Assembly (NCBI RefSeq): GCF_036321535.1
Contig: NC_087436.1
Location: 80,788,001 to 80,852,000 of the forward strand
Direction: 5' to 3'
DNA length: 64,000 nt
Origin: Camelus dromedarius
Taxonomy: Eukaryota
Part shown: piece after piece, positions 16,142-57,454 of the stretch
How the letters are laid out: every line of letters begins with the position of its first letter
Numbering within the stretch: position 1 is the stretch's first letter
Notes under the pieces: model-generated
What the model was told of the DNA's origin: nothing
Database searches by the model: none
Seen by the model: the letters and a program-made list of their open reading frames with translations, nothing else
Translations under genes and position numbers: made by a program

Positions 16142-16277
16142 TTTCTGAAGTATTTATTTATTGATTTATTTTTGAGGGGAGGTAATTACGTTTATTTTTT
16201 AATGGAGGTACTGGGGATTGAGCCCAGGACCTCATGCCTGCTAAGCACACACTCTACCATTGAACTCTGTCCTCTCA
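16142..16277 (-). mobile_element. tRNA-Ala-derived SINE (camelid Vic-1-like) with 14-bp TSD
   Basis: Minus strand reads AGTTCAATGGTAGAG...GCTTAGCAGGCATGAGGTCCTGGGCTCAATCCCCAGTACCTCC (A/B-box-like) + A-rich tail; TSD ctctgaacatcttt (16128-16141) / ctctgaacaccttt (16278-16291). Confidence 0.88.
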
Positions 16278-16521
16278 CTCTGAACACCTTTGATGAAACC
16301 TCCTCTCCTGACCATAGGGACTGGTTTCACACTGGAACCTGTCCCCCTCCAGAGTCCACCAGCAATTTATTTCTCCTTGTCTCAGTTACTTGGAAAAGGT
16401 TAAGACCCAGGAGAGTTCGTAGTCACTGATGACATTCCAATTCCCACAGAATGATCCAAAGTAGACACTCCAAGTTTCCCTACTGATCATGTAGTAGGTA
16501 ACCATACTGTTTCTTCTGGGG

Positions 16522-19696: not shown

Positions 19697-21810
19697 CAGG
19701 CACACCTTGGAGATATTGTGGGTTCAGTTCCAGACCACTGCAATAAGGCGAATATCACAATAAAGTGAGTCACACAAACATTTTGGTTTCCCAGTGCATA
19801 TAAAAGTTATATTCACACTATACTGCAGTCTGTTAAGTGTGAAACAGCAGTATGTCTAAAAGCAATGTACTTACCTTGACTAAAAATACTTTATTGCTAA
19901 AAAATGCTAACCATTATCTAAACCTTCAGTGAGTCATATTCTTTTTGCTATTGGAGGGCCTTACCTCGGGGTTGATGCTGCTGACTGATCAGGGTTGTAG
20001 TTGCTGAAGGTTGGAGTGGCTGTGGCAATTTCTTAAAATAAGACAACAATGAAGTCTGCCACATCAATTGACTCTTCCTTTCATGAAAGATTTCTCCGTA
20101 TGATGCATTGCTGTTTGATAACATTTTACCCAGTAGAACTTCTTTTGAAATTGGAGTCAGTCCTCTCAAACCCTGCCACTGCTTTATCAACTAAGCTTAT
20201 GTAATATTCTAAATCCTTTGTTGTCATGTCAGCAGTCTTCACAGCATCTTCACGAGGAGTAGTTTCCATCTCAAGAAACCAAGCTCTTTGCTCATCCATA
20301 AAAAGCAACTCCTCATCCACTCAAGTTTGACCATGAGATGGCAGCCACTCAGTCCCATTTTCAGTCTCTACTTCTAATTCTAGTTCTCTTCCTAGTTGCA
20401 TTACATCTGCAGTGACTTCCTCCTTTAAAATCTTGAACCTTTAAAAGTTACCCGTGAGATTTGAATCAACTTCTTACAAATTCCTGTGGATATTGATAAT
20501 TTGATCCTTCCCCATGAATCACAAATGTTCATAATGGCATCTGGAATGGTGAATACTTTCCAGAAGCTTTTTGGTTCACTTTGCCCAGATCCATCAGAGG
20601 AGCCACTATTTATGGCAACTATAGCCTCATGAAATGTGTTTCTCAAATAATAAGACTTGAAAGTCAAAATTACCCTTTGATCTATGAGCTACAGAATGGA
20701 TGTTGTGTTCTCAGGCATGAAAATAATGTTAATCTCATTGTACAACTCCATCAGAGCTCTTGGTTGATCAGGTGCATTGTCAGTGAGCAGCAACATTTTG
20801 AAAGGAATCTTTTTTCTGAGCATTAGGTCTCAAGAGTGGGCTTAAATATTCAGTAAAGCATGTTGTAAACAGATGTGCTGGCATCCAGGCTTTGTTGTTC
20901 TATTTATAAAGCACAGGTAGCTTTCGCATAATTCTTAAGGGCCTTAGGATTTTAGGCATGGTAAATGAGCATTGCCTTCAACTGAAAGTCACCAGCTGCA
21001 TTGGCCCCTGAGAAGAGAGTCAGCCTGTCCTTTGAAGCTTTGAAACGAGGCATTGACTTCTCCTCTCTAGATATGAAAGTCCTAGATGGCATCTTCTTTT
21101 CAGTAGAAGGCTGTTTCATCCACACTGAAAATCTGTTGTTCAGTGTTGCCACCTTCATGAATGATCTGAGCTAGATCTTCTGGAGAACTTGCTGCAGCTT
21201 CTACATCAGCACTTGCTGCTTCACACTGCCTTTTATGTTATGGAGGCAGCTTCTTTCCTTAAACCTCATGAACCAGCCTCTGCTCACTTCAAACTTTTCT
21301 TCTGCAGCTTCCTCACCTCTCTAAGCCTTCATAGGATTGAAGAGGGTCTTGCTTTGGATTAGGCCTTGATTTACAGGTATATTGAAGCTGGTTTGACTTT
21401 CTGTCCAGACCATTAAACTTTCTCCATATCAGCAATAAGACTGTTTTGCTTTCTTATCATTTTTGTGTTCACTGGAGTAGCACATTTAATTTCCTTTAAG
21501 AACTTTTCTGTTGCATTCACAACTTGGCTGACAATTTGGTACAAGAGGCCTAGCTTTTGGCCTAACTCGACTTTGGACATGGCTTCCTCACAAAGCTTAA
21601 TCATTTTTAGCTTTTGATTTAAAGTGAGAGAAGCAACTCTCCCTTCCTTCGAGGCCATTGTAGGGTTATTAATTGGCCTAATTTCGATATTGTTGTGCCT
21701 TGGGAAATAGGGGGCCCAAGGAGGGAGAGAGAGATGGGGGAAAGGCCAATGAGTGAAAGAATCAGAACACACACAACATTCATTGATTAAGCCTTCCATC
21801 TTACATGCAT
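19697..21810 (-). mobile_element. Tigger1 (TcMar/pogo) DNA transposon with decayed transposase; one terminus missing
   Basis: Terminus 'caggcacaccttggagatattgtgggttcagttccagaccactgcaataa' at 19697; peptides [20 protein letters not shown]...[83 protein letters not shown]; many frameshifts. Confidence 0.95.
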
Positions 21811-21814
21811 GCAA

Positions 21815-22240
21815 ATCATCGCGAGACTAAGGGAAGGCCATATAGTTATAACATGACTGCAATATCCAGGGGAAAAGAGAGGAGGACTTTAAGGCAGTAA
21901 TAGTGGGAGGGAAAAAGCAGGGACAGATTAAGGAGACATGAATGTGATGTCTCTAGTGTATCTTCTCATCCCTGGATGCATAAGTAGGTTGGTGATGCTT
22001 GTCCACAAGATAGGAAATGCAGGGAAAAAAGAACAGGTTTTTGGGGAATGATGATGTTTTATTTTGGGTGTGTTCAGTAACAGTGGCATAGCCACAACGG
22101 GGGCAGTCACTCTCAAATTAAATGCATGTGTCTGAAGCCTATAAAGGGCTCTGAGCTAACGATATGGATTTGGGAGTCAGTAGTGTCTATGTGGATACTG
22201 ACACTTTGGTGTCAATGAAGAAACAAGATTTTTGGGAAAT
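21815..22240 (-). mobile_element. L2 fragment (continuation beyond Tigger1)
   Basis: 'ggaaaaaagaacaggtttttgggg...atttgggagtcagtag' is L2-like. Confidence 0.55.
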
Positions 22241-43734: not shown

Positions 43735-43876
43735 GTTTGTTTTTATTTTGTTTTTTTTTGGGGGGGGGTAACTAGGTTGATTGACTTATTTATTTTTCAA
43801 GTGGCAGTACTGGGGATTGAACCCAGGATCTTGTGCATGCTAAGTATGTATTCTACGACTGAGCTATATCCTCCCC
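43735..43876 (-). mobile_element. tRNA-Ala-derived SINE (Vic-1-like), second copy
   Basis: 'gtactggggattgaacccaggatcttgtgcatgctaagtatgtattctacgactgagctatatcctcccc' with T-rich tail to the left; homologous to 16142-16277. Confidence 0.88.
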
Positions 43877-49770: not shown

Positions 49771-50801
49771 ATTTTTTTAAAAGAAAAAAATCTGTTCCCA
49801 TCTTTCTTTCCTAGAAGAGAAAGTTTCTAATGATGTTATTGAAAATAGTAGAATCATTTAATTTTAAGCATCTTGAAAAGGACAAATAGTTAAAGAAGAG
49901 TTCAAAATTTGGATGGAGAAGATGTGTGTTTTGCTGTCCCTGAAATTTTTGGCAGATATGCTCGTGGAACAATGAGAGCATGGCAGAAAGCTACTTCATT
50001 AAACCTAATTGGAAACTAACCTTTCAAAATGTCCTTTATGAAACATTGTTCTGTTCATGCTATTTCTCTGTTTAAATCTTTTAAATGACTTTCTATTGTA
50101 AAAGGATGTAGGCATGAGATGGTGGAGAAAGGTTGAAGGTCTTTAATTTGTAATGTATGACTGAGAATAAATGGTATGTATGTACTGTAGTAGTTGTGAG
50201 TGAGGCTTGGAAGACGGTGACAAGAAATGATGTGGGAGATATCTGTGAGGGTTGCATCCTAAGACTTGTCTGAAATTCCTAAATCATAAATACTTCCAAA
50301 GTAAGTCATACAAGGATGAGTAGCTTAAAATAAAATAGCTGCAATTCAGAGTTCAGCAGTCAGAAAAATCTTTCTGCAATGGTTTTAAAGAAATTAAATT
50401 TGTACCTTAGAAAAATGACAAATCAGTGTCTCATGGACCTTCAGGATAACTCTCCAACAGCCCTAGATGAAACAGTTAAATCCATAAATGTCCTCATTCT
50501 GTTATTTAACAGAGGTACGAGTGTCAAAATGAAGTTCTGGCAGAGTGACTAGAACTGAACAACTCTTCCTTGAGCACGTTGGATTCCTGCCAAGTATTTA
50601 ACACTTCATAAGATGGATGATGGGCTTAATTTTAATTTAGAAAAGTTTAGCCAACAGACTATTAATGATTATAGATCATTTGCTAATTATAGAACATTGC
50701 CAGGTGCTGTGGGGCATTAAGAAAATAGAAGTCATGGGCTTGTAACAACATACAGTTTTAGAGACATGGCATGTTCATTTGAAGGTATAAGTCAGCAAAG
50801 T

Positions 50802-51850
50802 GAACCGTGCATGACATTGATCCTGTCCAAAATGTCCATTGAGACATTTGGTTCATGCCAAAAGGTCCTTGAAATATGGTCCTGTCCAAAACATCCATTT
50901 GGGACATTTGGTCCATGATTCATTAACTAATACGAACACTTAACTTTGTTAAAGTGTACTTTGTACTTCATGATGAATTTTGTATTTCACATTTATTCTT
51001 GTTCTTCTTTGTCATGCAGTTCATCAGGGTTATGCTTAAGTCAATGAGCAATTGCTCTTAAGTACATAAAAATGAGATTACTGGCTTTGTATTCATTCAT
51101 TCATTGTAACAATTTCATTTATACAGATTTGATTTTATTGGTGTTGTCATGAAGTTGATGATTGTATCTGAGAATAACTAGAAAGAACCTGGTGATAACT
51201 TGCTCATTGCTTTGCTGTTCATCTTTTAACACTTCAGTAAATCTCCAAATTGAAGGATAATGCACTACTATCAGCTTTTGAAATTTTCTGAGCCAGCCTT
51301 CCCCTGCATTATTCATCCTGTGATTGCCATTCAGTACTGATGTATAAACATTTCAAGTTTCTGGTGGAAATTTTGGAACTTCTGGTCTTCTTCTGCCTCT
51401 GTCATGCCTTCCATGGACATATAGTCTTTCAACATAATCCATTAGGTAATCTAGCTTTTCTTCTGTATTATCCACAATGTACTCAAAAATTTCATTTACA
51501 TTTTCCAAAGGCACAAATGGAAGTCCAAACAACATGGATGCACCTACGTAAGTGACATTTATGGGTGTTTCTGTTATCCTGTAATTGCATGGTAGACCCA
51601 AAGAAGATATTTTTTCACCACAGTTATTGTGAAAAATGGAACAAGCATCCTTTTACTTATGCATTTGGTAGGAGTAGTCAAATTGCATTTGTATTAGCAA
51701 TCTCAAAATCCATCATGCATAATGAGGGGTTGACGTCAAGATTTCTTTCCTATGCAAATACAAGTACTTCCTCATATATATGTGTGTGTGTGTGTGTACT
51801 ATATACATACATATGTATATACTGTATATACGTGTGTGTGTGTGTGTGTG

Positions 51851-51905
<55 letters not shown>

Positions 51906-52620
51906 GTCATCTGGCCTTTCATTGTTAGTACATAGATGAAGGTATAGTATAATCCAGTTCTACACTGTGTGAAGTATATAACTGAGTGAACTGTGTTGGT
52001 GCTATCTTGAAGGTGGCATCAGTGCATAATGTGGTAATAGCACTTAAGTATTGAATATTGTCATAAGTTGTGTAAATAAGGATTCTTCATCATCTTGAGC
52101 AGTGGAACTGTTCATGAGAAATGGTTCTGCACATCTGGTCACTTTAGACTCCTCTGAAATTTCAATTCCATGTGATGAAGTTGGGTTTAGGGGTCCATGT
52201 CTGGTTTGAATTCTATTTAATTGACTCTTTAATGAGTTTCTTTCTGGTAGCATTAACAAGACTTCCTCATCATGGTATCACAGAGAGTTCTGTGAAGTAC
52301 CTATGATGGCCTTGCATTTGATTCTTTTTCTGTGTGTTGTTTTATCTGATTCAGGGTTTTCTAACTTCCCCTTCAACCCCAACATTGTACTGATGTTTTC
52401 CTGTCCCATTTTGAATGATTATAATGTTATCCAAATCCTGACTAACTGTGTGTTGAGCATTTGCAGATTCTCCTCTATTCACAGCACGGGTCCTTTTTAC
52501 TTATATCTCTGTTAAAGAAAGGGAAATGGTAACAAAAACCATTGTAATGTAGCACTGCTTTTCTTTTTGTGAGTGCACTATTTCTGCCATATTCTATTGA
52601 GAATTTTCAAATAAAGGTGT
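50802..52620 (-). mobile_element. Mutator-like (MULE/MuDR) DNA transposon fossil with decayed FLYWCH-DDE transposase
   Basis: Minus strand, hand-translated across frameshifts and stops: MAEIVHSQK/AVLHYNGFCYH (ATG at 52590), DATFKIAPTQFTQLYTSH (D at 52020), MMDFEIANTNAI (D at 51710), VKGCLFHFSQ, LFGLPFVP, PKFPPET, NNAGEGW (E at 51301), HYPSIWRFTEVLKDEQ; subterminal repeats 50821-50917. Confidence 0.9.
51775..51904 (+). repeat. Compound microsatellite (TA)/(TG)/(TCTG)/(TCTA) inside the MULE transposase
   Basis: Read directly. Confidence 0.95.
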
Positions 52621-52729
52621 CATATTGCTAAGTAACTGAAGATTTTTTTTTTTTGAAGCTGTCTAACCAATGGTTGCTGGCTTACTGGTAGAGGAAAACT
52701 TCCTAATGTCTTATGAATTTGATACCTGG

Positions 52730-55700
52730 TTCAAGATCCAACCATGTTGTTGCAAATGGCAGAATTTCATTTATTTTTAGGTTGAGTAGTAGTCACACAC
52801 ACACACACACACAACACATTCTTTATCCGTTCATCCATTGATGATGTTTTCTATCTTGCCTATTGTAAATGATGCTAAGGTGAACATAGAAGTGCACATA
52901 CCTTTTTGAATTAGTGATTTTGTGTTTTTCAGTTAAATAACCAGAAGTGAAATAGCTGGGTCCTACGGTAGTTCTAGTCCTAATTTTTTTGAGAAATCTC
53001 CATACTATTTTCCATTGTGATTAGCCCAATTTAGAGTCTCACCAACCGTGTACAAAGATTCCCTTTTCTTCATCTTCTCTCCAGCACTTGTTATTTTTTG
53101 TCTTTTTGACAATAGCCATTCTGATAGGTATGAGGTAGTATTTTGTAACTTTGATTTACGTTTCCCTAATAATTAGTGATGTTAAACTTTTCATTTGCTT
53201 CTTGGGAATTATCTGTATATCTTCTTTGGGAAAATATCTGTTCAGATCCTCTGCCCATTTTTTAAATCAAGTTGTCTGGGTTTTTTGTTGTTGTTGTTGA
53301 GTTGATGAGTTCTTTATATATTTTGGATTATATATATGTATATAATTTGCAAGTATCTTCTCCCTTTCAGTAGGTTGCTTTTTTCATTTTCGTGATGATT
53401 TTATTTTCAACGTGCAGGAGCATTTTAGTTTGTTTCAGTCCAATTTGATTAATTTTCCTTTTGTTTACTTTAGTTTTAGAGTCAGATCCACAAAAACATA
53501 ACTAAGACCAAAGTCAATAGTTACTGCCTGTGTTTTTTCTAAGAATTGTATGAGTTCAGGGTTTACGCTCAAGTCTTTAATTCATTTTGAGTTAATTTTT
53601 CTGTATGAATAAGATAGTCTAGGTTCATTCTTTTGCGTGTGGCTGTCCAGTTTTCCCAATACCATTTATTGAAGAGAATGTCCTTTGTCCATTGTGTGTT
53701 CTTTGCTCCTCTGAGGTAATTTAACTGACTATATATCTGTGGATTTATTTTTGGATCTCAATTCTGTTCCATTGATCTGTGTCTTTTTGTGCCAGTACCA
53801 AACTATTTTGATTACTATAGTTTTGTGGTATAGTTTGAAATCAGAGAATGTGACACCTCTAGCCTAGCTGTTCTTTTTCAAGATTGCTTTGGCTATTTGA
53901 GGTCTTTTGTGGTTCTATATAAATTTTAGAATTATTTATTCTAGTTCTGTAAGATATACCATTGGAATTTTGATAGGGATTGCATTGAATCTGTGTATTA
54001 CTTTGGGTAGCATGGACATTTTGACAGTATTAATTCTTCCTGTCCATGAATTTGGAATATCTTTCCATTAGTTTGTGTCATCTTTGGTTTCTTTCATTAG
54101 TGTCTTATTGTGTTCTGAGTATAAGTCTTTTACCTCCTTGGTTAGATTTATTCCTAGGTATTTCATTTTCTTTCATTTTTTGATGCAATTGTAAATGGGA
54201 CTGTAAATCACTCTTTCTAATAGTTTATTATTAGTGCATGGAAAGGCCACAGATTCCTGTATATTGACTTTGTATCCTGTGACTTTACTGAATTATTGTA
54301 ATTTTAAGTAATTTTACTACTTTTGTCTTTAAACCTTCATGCTTGCTTTTTAAGTGAATGATCTTTATATATACTTTAATATATCTTTATTATATACTTG
54401 CCTAACCAAGTGGGATTTTTGCTTTTGTATGTTTTCTTATTATTAATGCTGTTTCCTTTCAGCTTAAAGAAATCCCTTTAAAATTTCTTGTAGGGCTGGT
54501 TTAGTGGTAATGAACTCCTTCAGCTTTGGCTTATCTGGAAAACCCTTGCTCTCTTCTTCAATCTGGATGACAATCTTACTGGTTAGAAAATTCTTCATTG
54601 GAAGCTTTTTTCTTTCAGCACTTTGAATATGTCATGCCACTGTCTTCTGGTTTGCAAAATTTCTGCTGAAAAATATGCTGTTAGCCTAATAGGGTTTCCC
54701 TTGTGCATAACAAGTTGTTTTTGTCATGACGCTTTTAGGATTCTCTCTTTGTTCTTAATTTTTTCTTTTACCATTTTAATTATAATATGTCTTGACATGT
54801 GTTCCTTTGGATTTATCTTATTTGAAGCTTTCTGGGTTTCCTGGACCTGGATGTTTGTTTCCTTCCTCAGCCTAGGGAGGCTTTTAGCCCCTGTTTCTTC
54901 AGGTAATTTTTCTGGCCCTTTCTCTCTCTCTTCTCTCTGTGACCCCTATGATATGAATGTCATTCTGCTTGATGTTGTCCCAAAGGTCTCTTAAGTTATC
55001 TTCATTTTTTAAAAATTCTTTTTCCTTTTGCTGGTCTGGGTGAGTATCATTGTTTTGTCTTCTAACTCACTGACTTGTTCTTCTACTTCATCCATCCCTC
55101 TAGTGTATTTTTCAGTTAAGTTATAATTTCTGTTTGGTACTTTCTTATATTTTCTATCTCTTTGTTGAAGTTCTGTGTTTATCCATTCTTCTTGCATGTT
55201 CAGTGAACATCTTTGTGACCATTATTTGGAACTCTTTATCAGGTAAACCATTCTGTTTAGTTCTTTTCTTGAGGTATTGTTTTGTTCTTTTGACTGGAAC
55301 ATACTCCTCTATCTCCTCACTTTACCTGTTTCTCTCTGTTTATTTCTATGTATTAGGAGTATCAGCTATCTCTACCAGTCTTGAAGGAGTGGCTCTATTT
55401 AGAAGATGTCCTGTGGGGCTTAGAAGCACAGTCTTGCCTGTTCAGCCTAGCCAGATGCTCAGGGGTGTCCCTATGTGGGTTGTGTCCTCCCTCTTGTTGT
55501 GGTGGGATTGAGTCTGCAGTGGGGCACTGGTAGGCAGTTCTGGCCCTTAGACTGGCTGTGGGGCTTGGCGACTGTTACTATGGGGTATTGGTGGTGATGG
55601 CTATTGCTTGGTGAGCTGTGAGACTGATCTAGGTGCAGGAGTGGGTGGTTCTTTCATGGTGGCATGCTCACTGCCACTAGCTGTTAATGTGGAGAATTTA

Positions 55701-56345
55701 AAAATTGTGCCTGCCACTGTTGGTATTAAAGAGGTTGCCTGAGATCGCATAAATGGCTTCTGCCAGCAACTTAGTGTCCGAGGAGCATCCCAACTTGTTC
55801 CTGCCTCCCCAGCAGACTCTTCAAGATTGGTAAGTGGGTCCCCTTAACCTATTGTCCATATACTTTTCAATCTTGTGTTTTTGTAGTGTTTTTTTTGCGT
55901 CAAGCAAGGCTTTGTTGGGGTCATTTAAGAGCAGATTTTTTTTTTTGTTTCCCACAGTTCTATAGTTTTCTTAGATACATTCCTGTTGGTTCTCAAAGCC
56001 AGGTGTTTTGGGGGCTCATCTCTCCTGTGAAGGATCTAGGGTTTGAGGTGCTTGATGTGGAGCTTGAATTTTTCTCTCCTCAAGGAAAACATTTGTACCT
56101 TTGTGCTCCTGATTGTCAATTACTGCAACCTGGGTGTGAGTTTTTCCTTGGTGAGCCTGTATCTCTGCCTCTCCTATCCACCTCCATGCTTTTTTTTTGC
56201 ATTTTGTTGTAGAGTCTCTGTTGATACAATTTTCAAGTATCTTTCCAAGGGAGTTATTCCATAAGCGCTTGTAGATTTGTTGTATCTCTGTGTGTGGGTG
56301 GGGGTGTGGTGAGTTCACAATCTTTTTATGCCCTATCTTGAACAG
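52730..56345 (-). mobile_element. LINE-1 with 5' UTR + ORF1 (54300-56345) joined to ORF2 C-terminal part (52730-54300); internally deleted and 3'-truncated
   Basis: ORF1-like peptide MDEVEEQVSELEDK (55009-55197); antisense ORF1 end 'ggtttagtggtaatgaactccttcagcttt'; antisense ORF2 text homologous to the other L1s; no poly-T at 52730. Confidence 0.85.
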
Positions 56346-56711: not shown

Positions 56712-56862
56712 TAAGAAGATGACTGCAAGATATGATCATCGATCTGGCTGTCTAAAAGGAAATTATCATTTTAAAGGGTATGATTATTAGACAAAGAGAA
56801 TCTCCTGTATTTATTGATAACTGGGATACTGCACATCAGCATAGATTTTTTAGAGCAAAAAA

Positions 56863-57454
56863 TTTTTAACATTTTTATTGATTTATAATCATTTTATAAC
56901 GTTGTGTCAAATTCTAGTGTTCAGCACAATTTTTCAGTCATACATGGACATATACACACTCATTATCATATTTTTTCCTCTGTGATTCCCTGTGCTATAC
57001 AGTATAATCTTGCCTATCTATTCTACAATTTTGAAATCCCAGTCTATCCCTTCCCACCCTCCACCCCCCTGGAAACCACAAGTCTGTATTCTATGTCTAT
57101 GAGTCTATTTTTGTCCTGTATTTAAGCTTTTTTGTTGTTGTTGCTGTTTGTTTGTTTGTTTTTGTTTTTGTCTTTTAGATTCCACTTATGAGCAATCTCA
57201 TATGGTATTTTTCTTTCTCCTTCTGGCTTACTTCACTTAGAATGACATTCTCCAGGAGCATCCATGTTGCTGCAAATGGTGTTATGTTGTCAATTTTTAT
57301 GGCTGAGTAGTATTCCATTGTATAAATATCAGGATGACACCTGCACCCCAATGTTCACAGCAGCACTATTTACAATAGCCAAAACATGGAAACAGCCTAA
57401 ATGTCCATCAACAGGTGACTGGATAAAGAAGATGTGGTATATTTATACAATGGA
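56863..57454 (-). mobile_element. Young LINE-1 3' fragment with inverted 5' segment (57330-57454)
   Basis: Antisense 3' UTR to 57329, then sense ORF2 end (DTCTPMFTAALFTIAKTWKQPKCPSTGDWIKKMWYIYTME); 16-nt inverted overlap. Confidence 0.92.

Follow-up and report, generated by a model that had tools for sequence, protein, structure and literature searches.

The question raised by this locus is whether a decayed coding sequence in the 64,000-nucleotide stretch of DNA analyzed here (the window) derives from a Mutator-like (MULE) transposon and, if so, whether that element belonged to Ricksha, the catalogued placental MULE-MuDR family, or reached mammals by another route. The original prediction described a near full-length MULE transposase fossil with invertebrate FLYWCH-MULE affinity that perhaps was acquired horizontally. 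As detailed below, the closest intact relatives of the transposase are encoded by whipworms, a pattern that points to an ancient transfer between species.

Results

All of the motifs named in the original prediction were found in the expected order on the minus strand of the window when the translations were read and motif coordinates assigned: GFCY (52540-52529), DATF (52020-52009), MDFE (51713-51702), GCLFH (51650-51636), LPFVP (51523-51509), FPP (51370-51362), NNAGEGW (51313-51293), HYPSIW (51262-51245), and LKDEQ (51229-51215). The SQK and LHYNGFCY elements at the N-terminus occupy separate frames which were linked in a frameshift-aware alignment by a frameshift near position 52556. This alignment delineated a dead but complete FLYWCH+MULE transposase gene on the minus strand (50993-52590) that extends from an ATG codon at 52590 to a TAA codon, read from the sequence, at 50995-50993. 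Compared with P0001, a FLYWCH+MULE protein of 516 residues from Trichuris suis, 261 of 477 codons were identical (54.7%) and residues 34-516 of P0001 were covered. Residue 1 of a second T. suis protein, P0006, aligned at 52590 which is the start codon of the fossil. When P0001 was compared with the whole window by tblastn, four segments of 168, 89, 83, and 50 bits were recovered, all within 51005-52599 (best E 5e-47), whereas 100 of 100 shuffled versions of P0001 scored no higher than 30.4 bits.

The Pfam MULE model matched one of the six frame translations of the window with an E value of 6.5e-4 and a score of 20.5 bits, which is under the cut-off of 27.6 because the domain is broken up by frameshifts and a microsatellite. 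The same model recognized residues 225-321 of P0001 above the curated cut-off (E 2.8e-13). The Pfam FLYWCH model produced no match in any of the six single-frame translations of the window, and the FLYWCH assignment therefore is based on collinear alignment with residues 42-97 of P0001, in which the domain is detected with an E value of 8.3e-12. In the decayed FLYWCH-like zinc finger region (52387-52590, minus strand) the GFCY motif is retained, the YWRC motif of the relative reads DPCC and HQH reads HQY, and the finger has lost the tryptophan and the final histidine.

The MULE catalytic core (51636-52023, minus strand) was delimited by motif coordinates together with the single-frame Pfam match. 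Its first aspartate is at 52020-52018, the second is at 51710-51708, and the CxxH motif is present as GCLFH. The downstream NNAGEGW motif includes a glutamate at 51301-51299 that is the presumed third catalytic residue on the basis of what is known of MULE DDE motifs. Both aspartates, the glutamate, and CxxH remain intact in the fossil. Membership of the Mutator/MULE superfamily is confirmed by this MULE-type DDE transposase with its D, D, E, and CxxH residues. A search of solved structures with P0001 yielded no match (a single entry, E 0.56).

When aligned with P0001 the gene bears 12 stops and 9 frameshifts, together with a single insertion of 113 nt. The insertion (51798-51910) corresponds to a compound (TG)n, (GT)n, (TCTA)n microsatellite inside the catalytic core that spans 51781-51910 and in which Tandem Repeats Finder detected arrays at 51781-51797, 51832-51865, and 51853-51905. 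An exapted or otherwise functional gene is ruled out by the stops and frameshifts, which are distributed over the whole frame: the copy is dead and without sign of function. Thus, the MULE identity, the FLYWCH-like N-terminus, and the death of the copy by stops, frameshifts, and a microsatellite all were borne out by the reconstruction.

The termini of the element were examined by repeat comparison and with Tandem Repeats Finder. A presumed 3′ terminal inverted repeat arm, with an inferred exact end, is located at 50800-50920 and contains internal direct repeats. Two 41-nt copies (50818-50857 and 50877-50917) are 85% identical (E 3e-7), and a period-28 array of three copies occupies 50821-50912 (score 91). 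The 3′ end presumably therefore has the form expected of a sub-repeated terminal arm. No inverted partner for this arm was found upstream of the ATG codon (score 16), beyond the adjoining L1 (score 20), or in the rest of the window, set against a background with a mean of 21, a standard deviation of 3.5, and a best unrelated tile of 38. The non-coding remnant upstream of the gene (52591-52730, minus strand) probably is the 5′ leader, from which the 5′ terminal repeat has been lost.

Approximately 140 nt upstream of the fossil ATG, reading by eye places the start of an internally deleted remnant (52740-56340, minus strand) which, along with its ends, we take to be L1. The remnant is truncated at the junction, where its 3′ end is missing, and it is not part of the element. 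In the simplest reading, a single deletion probably removed both the 5′ arm and the L1 3′ end. Two other histories were rejected. Clean insertion of the L1 into the 5′ leader is ruled out by the absence of the 5′ arm beyond the L1, and insertion of the element into the L1 by the L1 3′ end, which by eye is not resumed beyond 50800. As the 5′ end of the copy is lost, the target duplication, which in the Mutator/MULE superfamily measures 8-11 bp, is unreadable here. The description of the fossil as near full-length consequently holds for the coding region, which is complete from ATG to TAA, but not for the element, which is incomplete with only the 3′ terminal repeat present.

The window consists of mammalian-type non-coding DNA of 32-45% GC with remnants that we take to be of L1, SINE, and DNA-transposon origin. 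Short tRNA-like SINE copies at about 43780-43860 and about 16150-16330, and L1 3′ ends near 56860-57300, resemble those of camelids and suggest a camelid host. Elsewhere, a 137-residue open stretch at 21413-21826 on the minus strand resembles the N-terminus of a Tigger1/pogo-type transposase.

The segment 50300-52780 was found at 0.94-0.95 of its words in 14 of the 24 sequencing runs listed, with runs that had small shares disregarded; the 14 runs originate from nine studies and two organisms, and one of them may be the source sample. The segment therefore is real host DNA. The CpG observed/expected ratio was 0.06 in the gene and 0.14 in the window, and this depletion fits a long history of methylation. 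Two RNA-seq runs with the label reproductive system contained 0.80 and 0.73 of the words of 50300-52780; these words could reflect intronic RNA or DNA carry-over and are not taken as evidence of expression.

When the C-terminal fragment of the fossil was used as the first protein query with stops entered as X, two proteins matched among 109 candidates, of which the better was P0001 (E 1.4e-40). P0001 in turn retrieved 29 proteins among 4765 candidates, including seven named Trichuris, and the next relatives were from thrips, whitefly, and unnamed contigs. In 62 alignments of at least 300 residues, the fossil read-through was 50-53% identical to the transposon-like copies of T. suis, 42.6% identical to P0006, and 37.6% identical to P0008 of Trichuris trichiura; the value for the best non-Trichuris protein was 38.6%. 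No named vertebrate protein matched the transposase in the protein searches, in which eukaryotes are thinly sampled.

The T. suis proteins were drawn from three gene sets (M513, M514, and D918), in which they lie on contigs of 0.1-2.8 Mb; a relative is present in T. trichiura as well. Their occurrence as open frames on long contigs, both in these gene sets and in the second species, indicates that the proteins are native to the worm. One T. suis gene model, P0020 (M514_21545), combines the MULE C-terminus of P0005 with part of a DDE_1 (Tc1/pogo-type) sequence and probably represents nested transposons or a chimeric model. That the relationship between the fossil and the worm proteins reflects whipworm DNA in a mammalian assembly, or host DNA in whipworm assemblies, is scarcely credible: contamination of a mammalian assembly by whipworm is documented (PMC6542046), but the copy described here is decayed, CpG-depleted, set among mammalian-type repeats, and accompanied by its flanks in the 14 runs above, and the whipworm proteins are open frames in both Trichuris species.

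Phylogenetic analysis was performed with rows picked by the analyst from the longer matches; short fragments were excluded apart from the fossil fragment P0196. A maximum-likelihood tree of 23 rows united the window, P0196, and five Trichuris proteins in a clade with support of 100/100. Placement of the fossils with P0002 was rejected (p-AU 4e-6), as was placement with the thrips-containing clade (p-AU 1e-31). A quick tree of 47 rows recovered the same grouping of the window with Trichuris (SH-aLRT 100). The kinship with invertebrate FLYWCH-MULE proteins that had been proposed earlier thus is substantiated and can be narrowed to whipworms. Inside the clade neither Trichuris monophyly (p-AU 0.24) nor grouping of the fossils with P0006 and P0008 (p-AU 0.45) was rejected, and support for the fossils with the T. 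suis transposons was 59/12.

P0006 (KHJ48013.1) and P0008 (CDW58273.1) are full open frames that are 69% identical, share a long branch, and have lost both the CxxH histidine and the NNA motif. They are probable orthologs and a candidate domesticated transposase gene in Trichuris. A 9-residue loop that is mostly absent from the T. suis transposon copies is kept in the fossils, P0006, P0008, and the outgroup P0002. The fossil family and the sampled T. suis copies therefore are sisters, and these copies were not the donor.

The tree bears on the possibility that whipworms and mammals each obtained the element from a third party, such as an unsampled arthropod, another helminth, or a virus. Whipworms are gut parasites of mammals that live in intimate contact with gut tissue. 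Moreover, Trichuris harbors two deep lineages of the family, namely the transposon copies and the long-branched P0006/P0008 pair common to two species, which suggest long residence in the genus. No third-party relative closer than Trichuris was found among 1.84 billion cluster representatives (best 150 of 1335 matches) in databases that are centered on prokaryotes and sample eukaryotes thinly. The third-party scenario instead draws on the unsettled branching inside the clade, the loop deletion that excludes the sampled T. suis transposons as direct ancestors, the thrips, whitefly, and unnamed contigs that supply the next relatives, and the wide jumps of MULEs between phyla (PMC6446971). Considering both sets of evidence, a third-party source is judged somewhat unlikely.

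Other decayed copies of the family came from contigs of ENA and Logan. An unfiltered HMMER search returned the 1335 matches (E ≤ 0.001) of which the best 150 were used, and a profile search returned 65 matches among 448 candidates. The resulting 198 cluster representatives included 52 of short length (≤200 residues) with 48% or greater identity to the read-through, and redundancy removal at 85% reduced these to 46. These fragments presumably are mammalian host DNA in metagenomes. A metagenome locus, L001, was rejected as a member of the family at just 35% identity. P0317, an unrelated bacterial SurA/rotamase protein, shared a 90% cluster with P0229, a fossil fragment of 52 residues, and this grouping is a clustering artefact.

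Mean pairwise identity between the 46 fragments was 57.6% (856 pairs with enough overlap) versus 73% to the leave-one-out majority. This star phylogeny argues for independent neutral decay from one ancestor and hence for one old burst. The window was 81% identical to the fragment majority over 128 columns. In comparison with 125 longer relatives, the majority was 75, 74, 72, and 72% identical in the C-terminal region to four T. suis proteins, 62% identical to P0006, and at most 57% identical to anything from outside Trichuris. When 10 other proteins were compared, T. suis was nearer than the best of these to each of the 46 fragments, a count biased by selection of the fragments at ≥48% identity to the window. 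In simulations of neutral decay, amino-acid identities of 81 and 73% corresponded to nucleotide differences of approximately 10 and 15%, respectively, and 12 stops to 15-19% with a wide spread. As the mammalian neutral rate is near 2.2e-9 per site per year, decay of ~10-19% places the burst about 45-90 million years ago, around the laurasiatherian or early placental radiation.

The identity values also bear on vertical descent. P0006 and P0008 share 73% identity over the same columns, and thus, in a comparison of transposase columns only, the 72-75% identity of the fossil majority to T. suis across the vertebrate-nematode split matches the distance between two congeneric whipworm genes. Inheritance from a bilaterian ancestor with loss outside mammals and whipworms is very improbable in view of this value and of the star-like decay, which indicates that one ancestor gave rise to a single burst, even though loss can make transposon distributions patchy (PMC9004415).

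Discussion

The preferred account, to which a probability of about 0.68 is assigned, is that the locus is a dead Mutator-type transposon of ~2 kb whose family entered mammals horizontally from the whipworm lineage or a close source, expanded in one burst, died, and was distinct from Ricksha. The element would once have been an autonomous cut-and-paste transposon with a single intronless FLYWCH+MULE gene. By analogy with Mutator elements (PMC3169594; PMC6446971, table 1), the FLYWCH finger is predicted to have bound the terminal arms at their short direct repeats, and the DDE core to have cut and pasted the element with target duplication of about 9 bp. The data suggest that the family reached the mammalian germ line from whipworms or from a source close to them, spread in the single burst dated above, and became extinct. 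The present copy later would have lost its 5′ arm, probably by the deletion that also took the 3′ end of the neighboring L1, and afterwards would have acquired the microsatellite.

The components of this account differ in strength. A horizontal origin, anticipated by the original prediction and favored by the identity values, the star-like decay, and the tree, is highly probable. That the family is distinct from Ricksha, which was compared by description only, is also likely although somewhat less so. Given both of these, the chance that a whipworm ancestor was the direct donor approaches even. The two deep lineages in Trichuris, set against the single burst that the fossils reflect, make transfer from whipworm to mammal more economical than the reverse, without proof from the tree. 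The evidence is best read as horizontal acquisition, long ago, from a source related to whipworms, with the donor and direction not fixed by the tree (p-AU 0.24). More tentatively, the donor may have been an ancestral whipworm itself: an uncatalogued Mutator family would have moved without an intermediary into the germ line of an early placental, perhaps a laurasiatherian, undergone a single burst there, and then died. Whipworms would have retained an active sister lineage, from which a domesticated whipworm gene also arose. Direct transfer from whipworms, if correct, would mean that Mutator elements invaded mammals a second time and left a readable MULE transposase, and that a Mutator element crossed between parasite and host, an event of which no description was found in the literature. 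The link with whipworms provides a testable case for parasites as routes by which DNA enters mammalian germ lines, and the association of whipworms with mammals could be dated from insertions at orthologous sites.

The T. suis FLYWCH+MULE proteins (KFD61048.1, KFD66287.1, and KHJ40130.1) and the derived pair P0006 and P0008 have the same domain order and length as the fossil. They are open nematode frames, annotated as hypothetical or named by domain and not as a transposon family, whereas the fossil is decayed. Among Mutator elements, the Phantom subclass, including horse Phantom, reportedly was introduced by Marquez and Pritham in 2010. Both the subclass and the horse report are described in later accounts (PMC3169594; PMC6446971), in the second of which Phantom is limited to one clade, group 20. 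Like the fossil, Phantom combines an N-terminal FLYWCH finger and a MULE domain in a single gene with a repeat-built terminus. Judging from this shared layout, the fossil element presumably worked like a Phantom-type Mutator transposon, and horse Phantom may be the same family. As described by Dupeyron et al. (2019), a survey of 1631 MULEs contained no verifiable vertebrate MULE transposase, horse Phantom was unconfirmed, and re-evaluation of the eutherian MULE entries was called for (PMC6446971). The name Trichuris appears in none of the three readable supplements of that survey (FASTA supplements aside) and Trichinella in two of the three. The fossil is a mammalian MULE transposase that can be aligned over its full length and so answers part of the question posed by Dupeyron et al. 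on vertebrate MULEs.

Ricksha, RICKSHA_0, Ricksha_a, and Ricksha_c, catalogued in Repbase and Dfam as placental MULE-MuDR elements, resemble the fossil in being dead Mutator-type transposons of placental genomes. The termini of Ricksha, including the terminal motif, and its transposase presumably differ markedly from those of the fossil. The composite forms RICKSHA and Ricksha_c are defined by a captured ERVL 3′ end with an MLT2B LTR (PMC1431705; PMC3531169), neither of which is present in the fossil whose interior, the microsatellite aside, is all transposase. The terminal repeats of RICKSHA are 79 bp (PMC1431705), in contrast to the repeat-built end of ~120 bp here, although the full arm length is unreadable from one end. 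That the element represents Ricksha (RICKSHA_0, Ricksha_a) in its autonomous form, or else a close sister of that family, is improbable, but less so than vertical descent. This proposal gains from the description of RICKSHA_0 as having a different interior without the ERVL part (PMC1431705; PMC3531169), and from RICKSHA, RICKSHA_0, and Ricksha_a being given as the sole human MuDR entries in Repbase (PMC5753468). It also gains from the 437 MULE-MuDR protein fossils reported by Frith in the human genome, of which 374 already are annotated by RepeatMasker and none is listed as pre-amniote (PMC9004415). Mammalian MULE transposase fossils as such therefore already are known. The other 63 of the 437 are without RepeatMasker annotation (PMC9004415, table 6). 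The main text of a bat survey makes no reference to MULE or MuDR (PMC10162687). Outside Dfam, Repbase Reports, and subscription journals, the literature yielded no description of a whipworm-related MULE in mammals, and the fossil family may well have an uncurated consensus in Dfam.

Horizontal acquisition from a whipworm-related source would place the fossil beside RTE1_Sar, AviRTE, bandit, SPIN, and OC1. Those members of this set that are not RTE retrotransposons are DNA transposons of the mariner and hAT types. In each case, as proposed here, a transposon is common to vertebrate hosts and parasite lineages, with RTE1_Sar shared by a nematode and a shrew, and transfers of other transposons between nematodes and vertebrates are established (PMC6542046). 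The fossil therefore adds a good example of an established phenomenon and introduces no new principle. It differs from these RTE and other DNA transposons, which display higher identity, in being a Mutator element that is older and linked to Trichuris.
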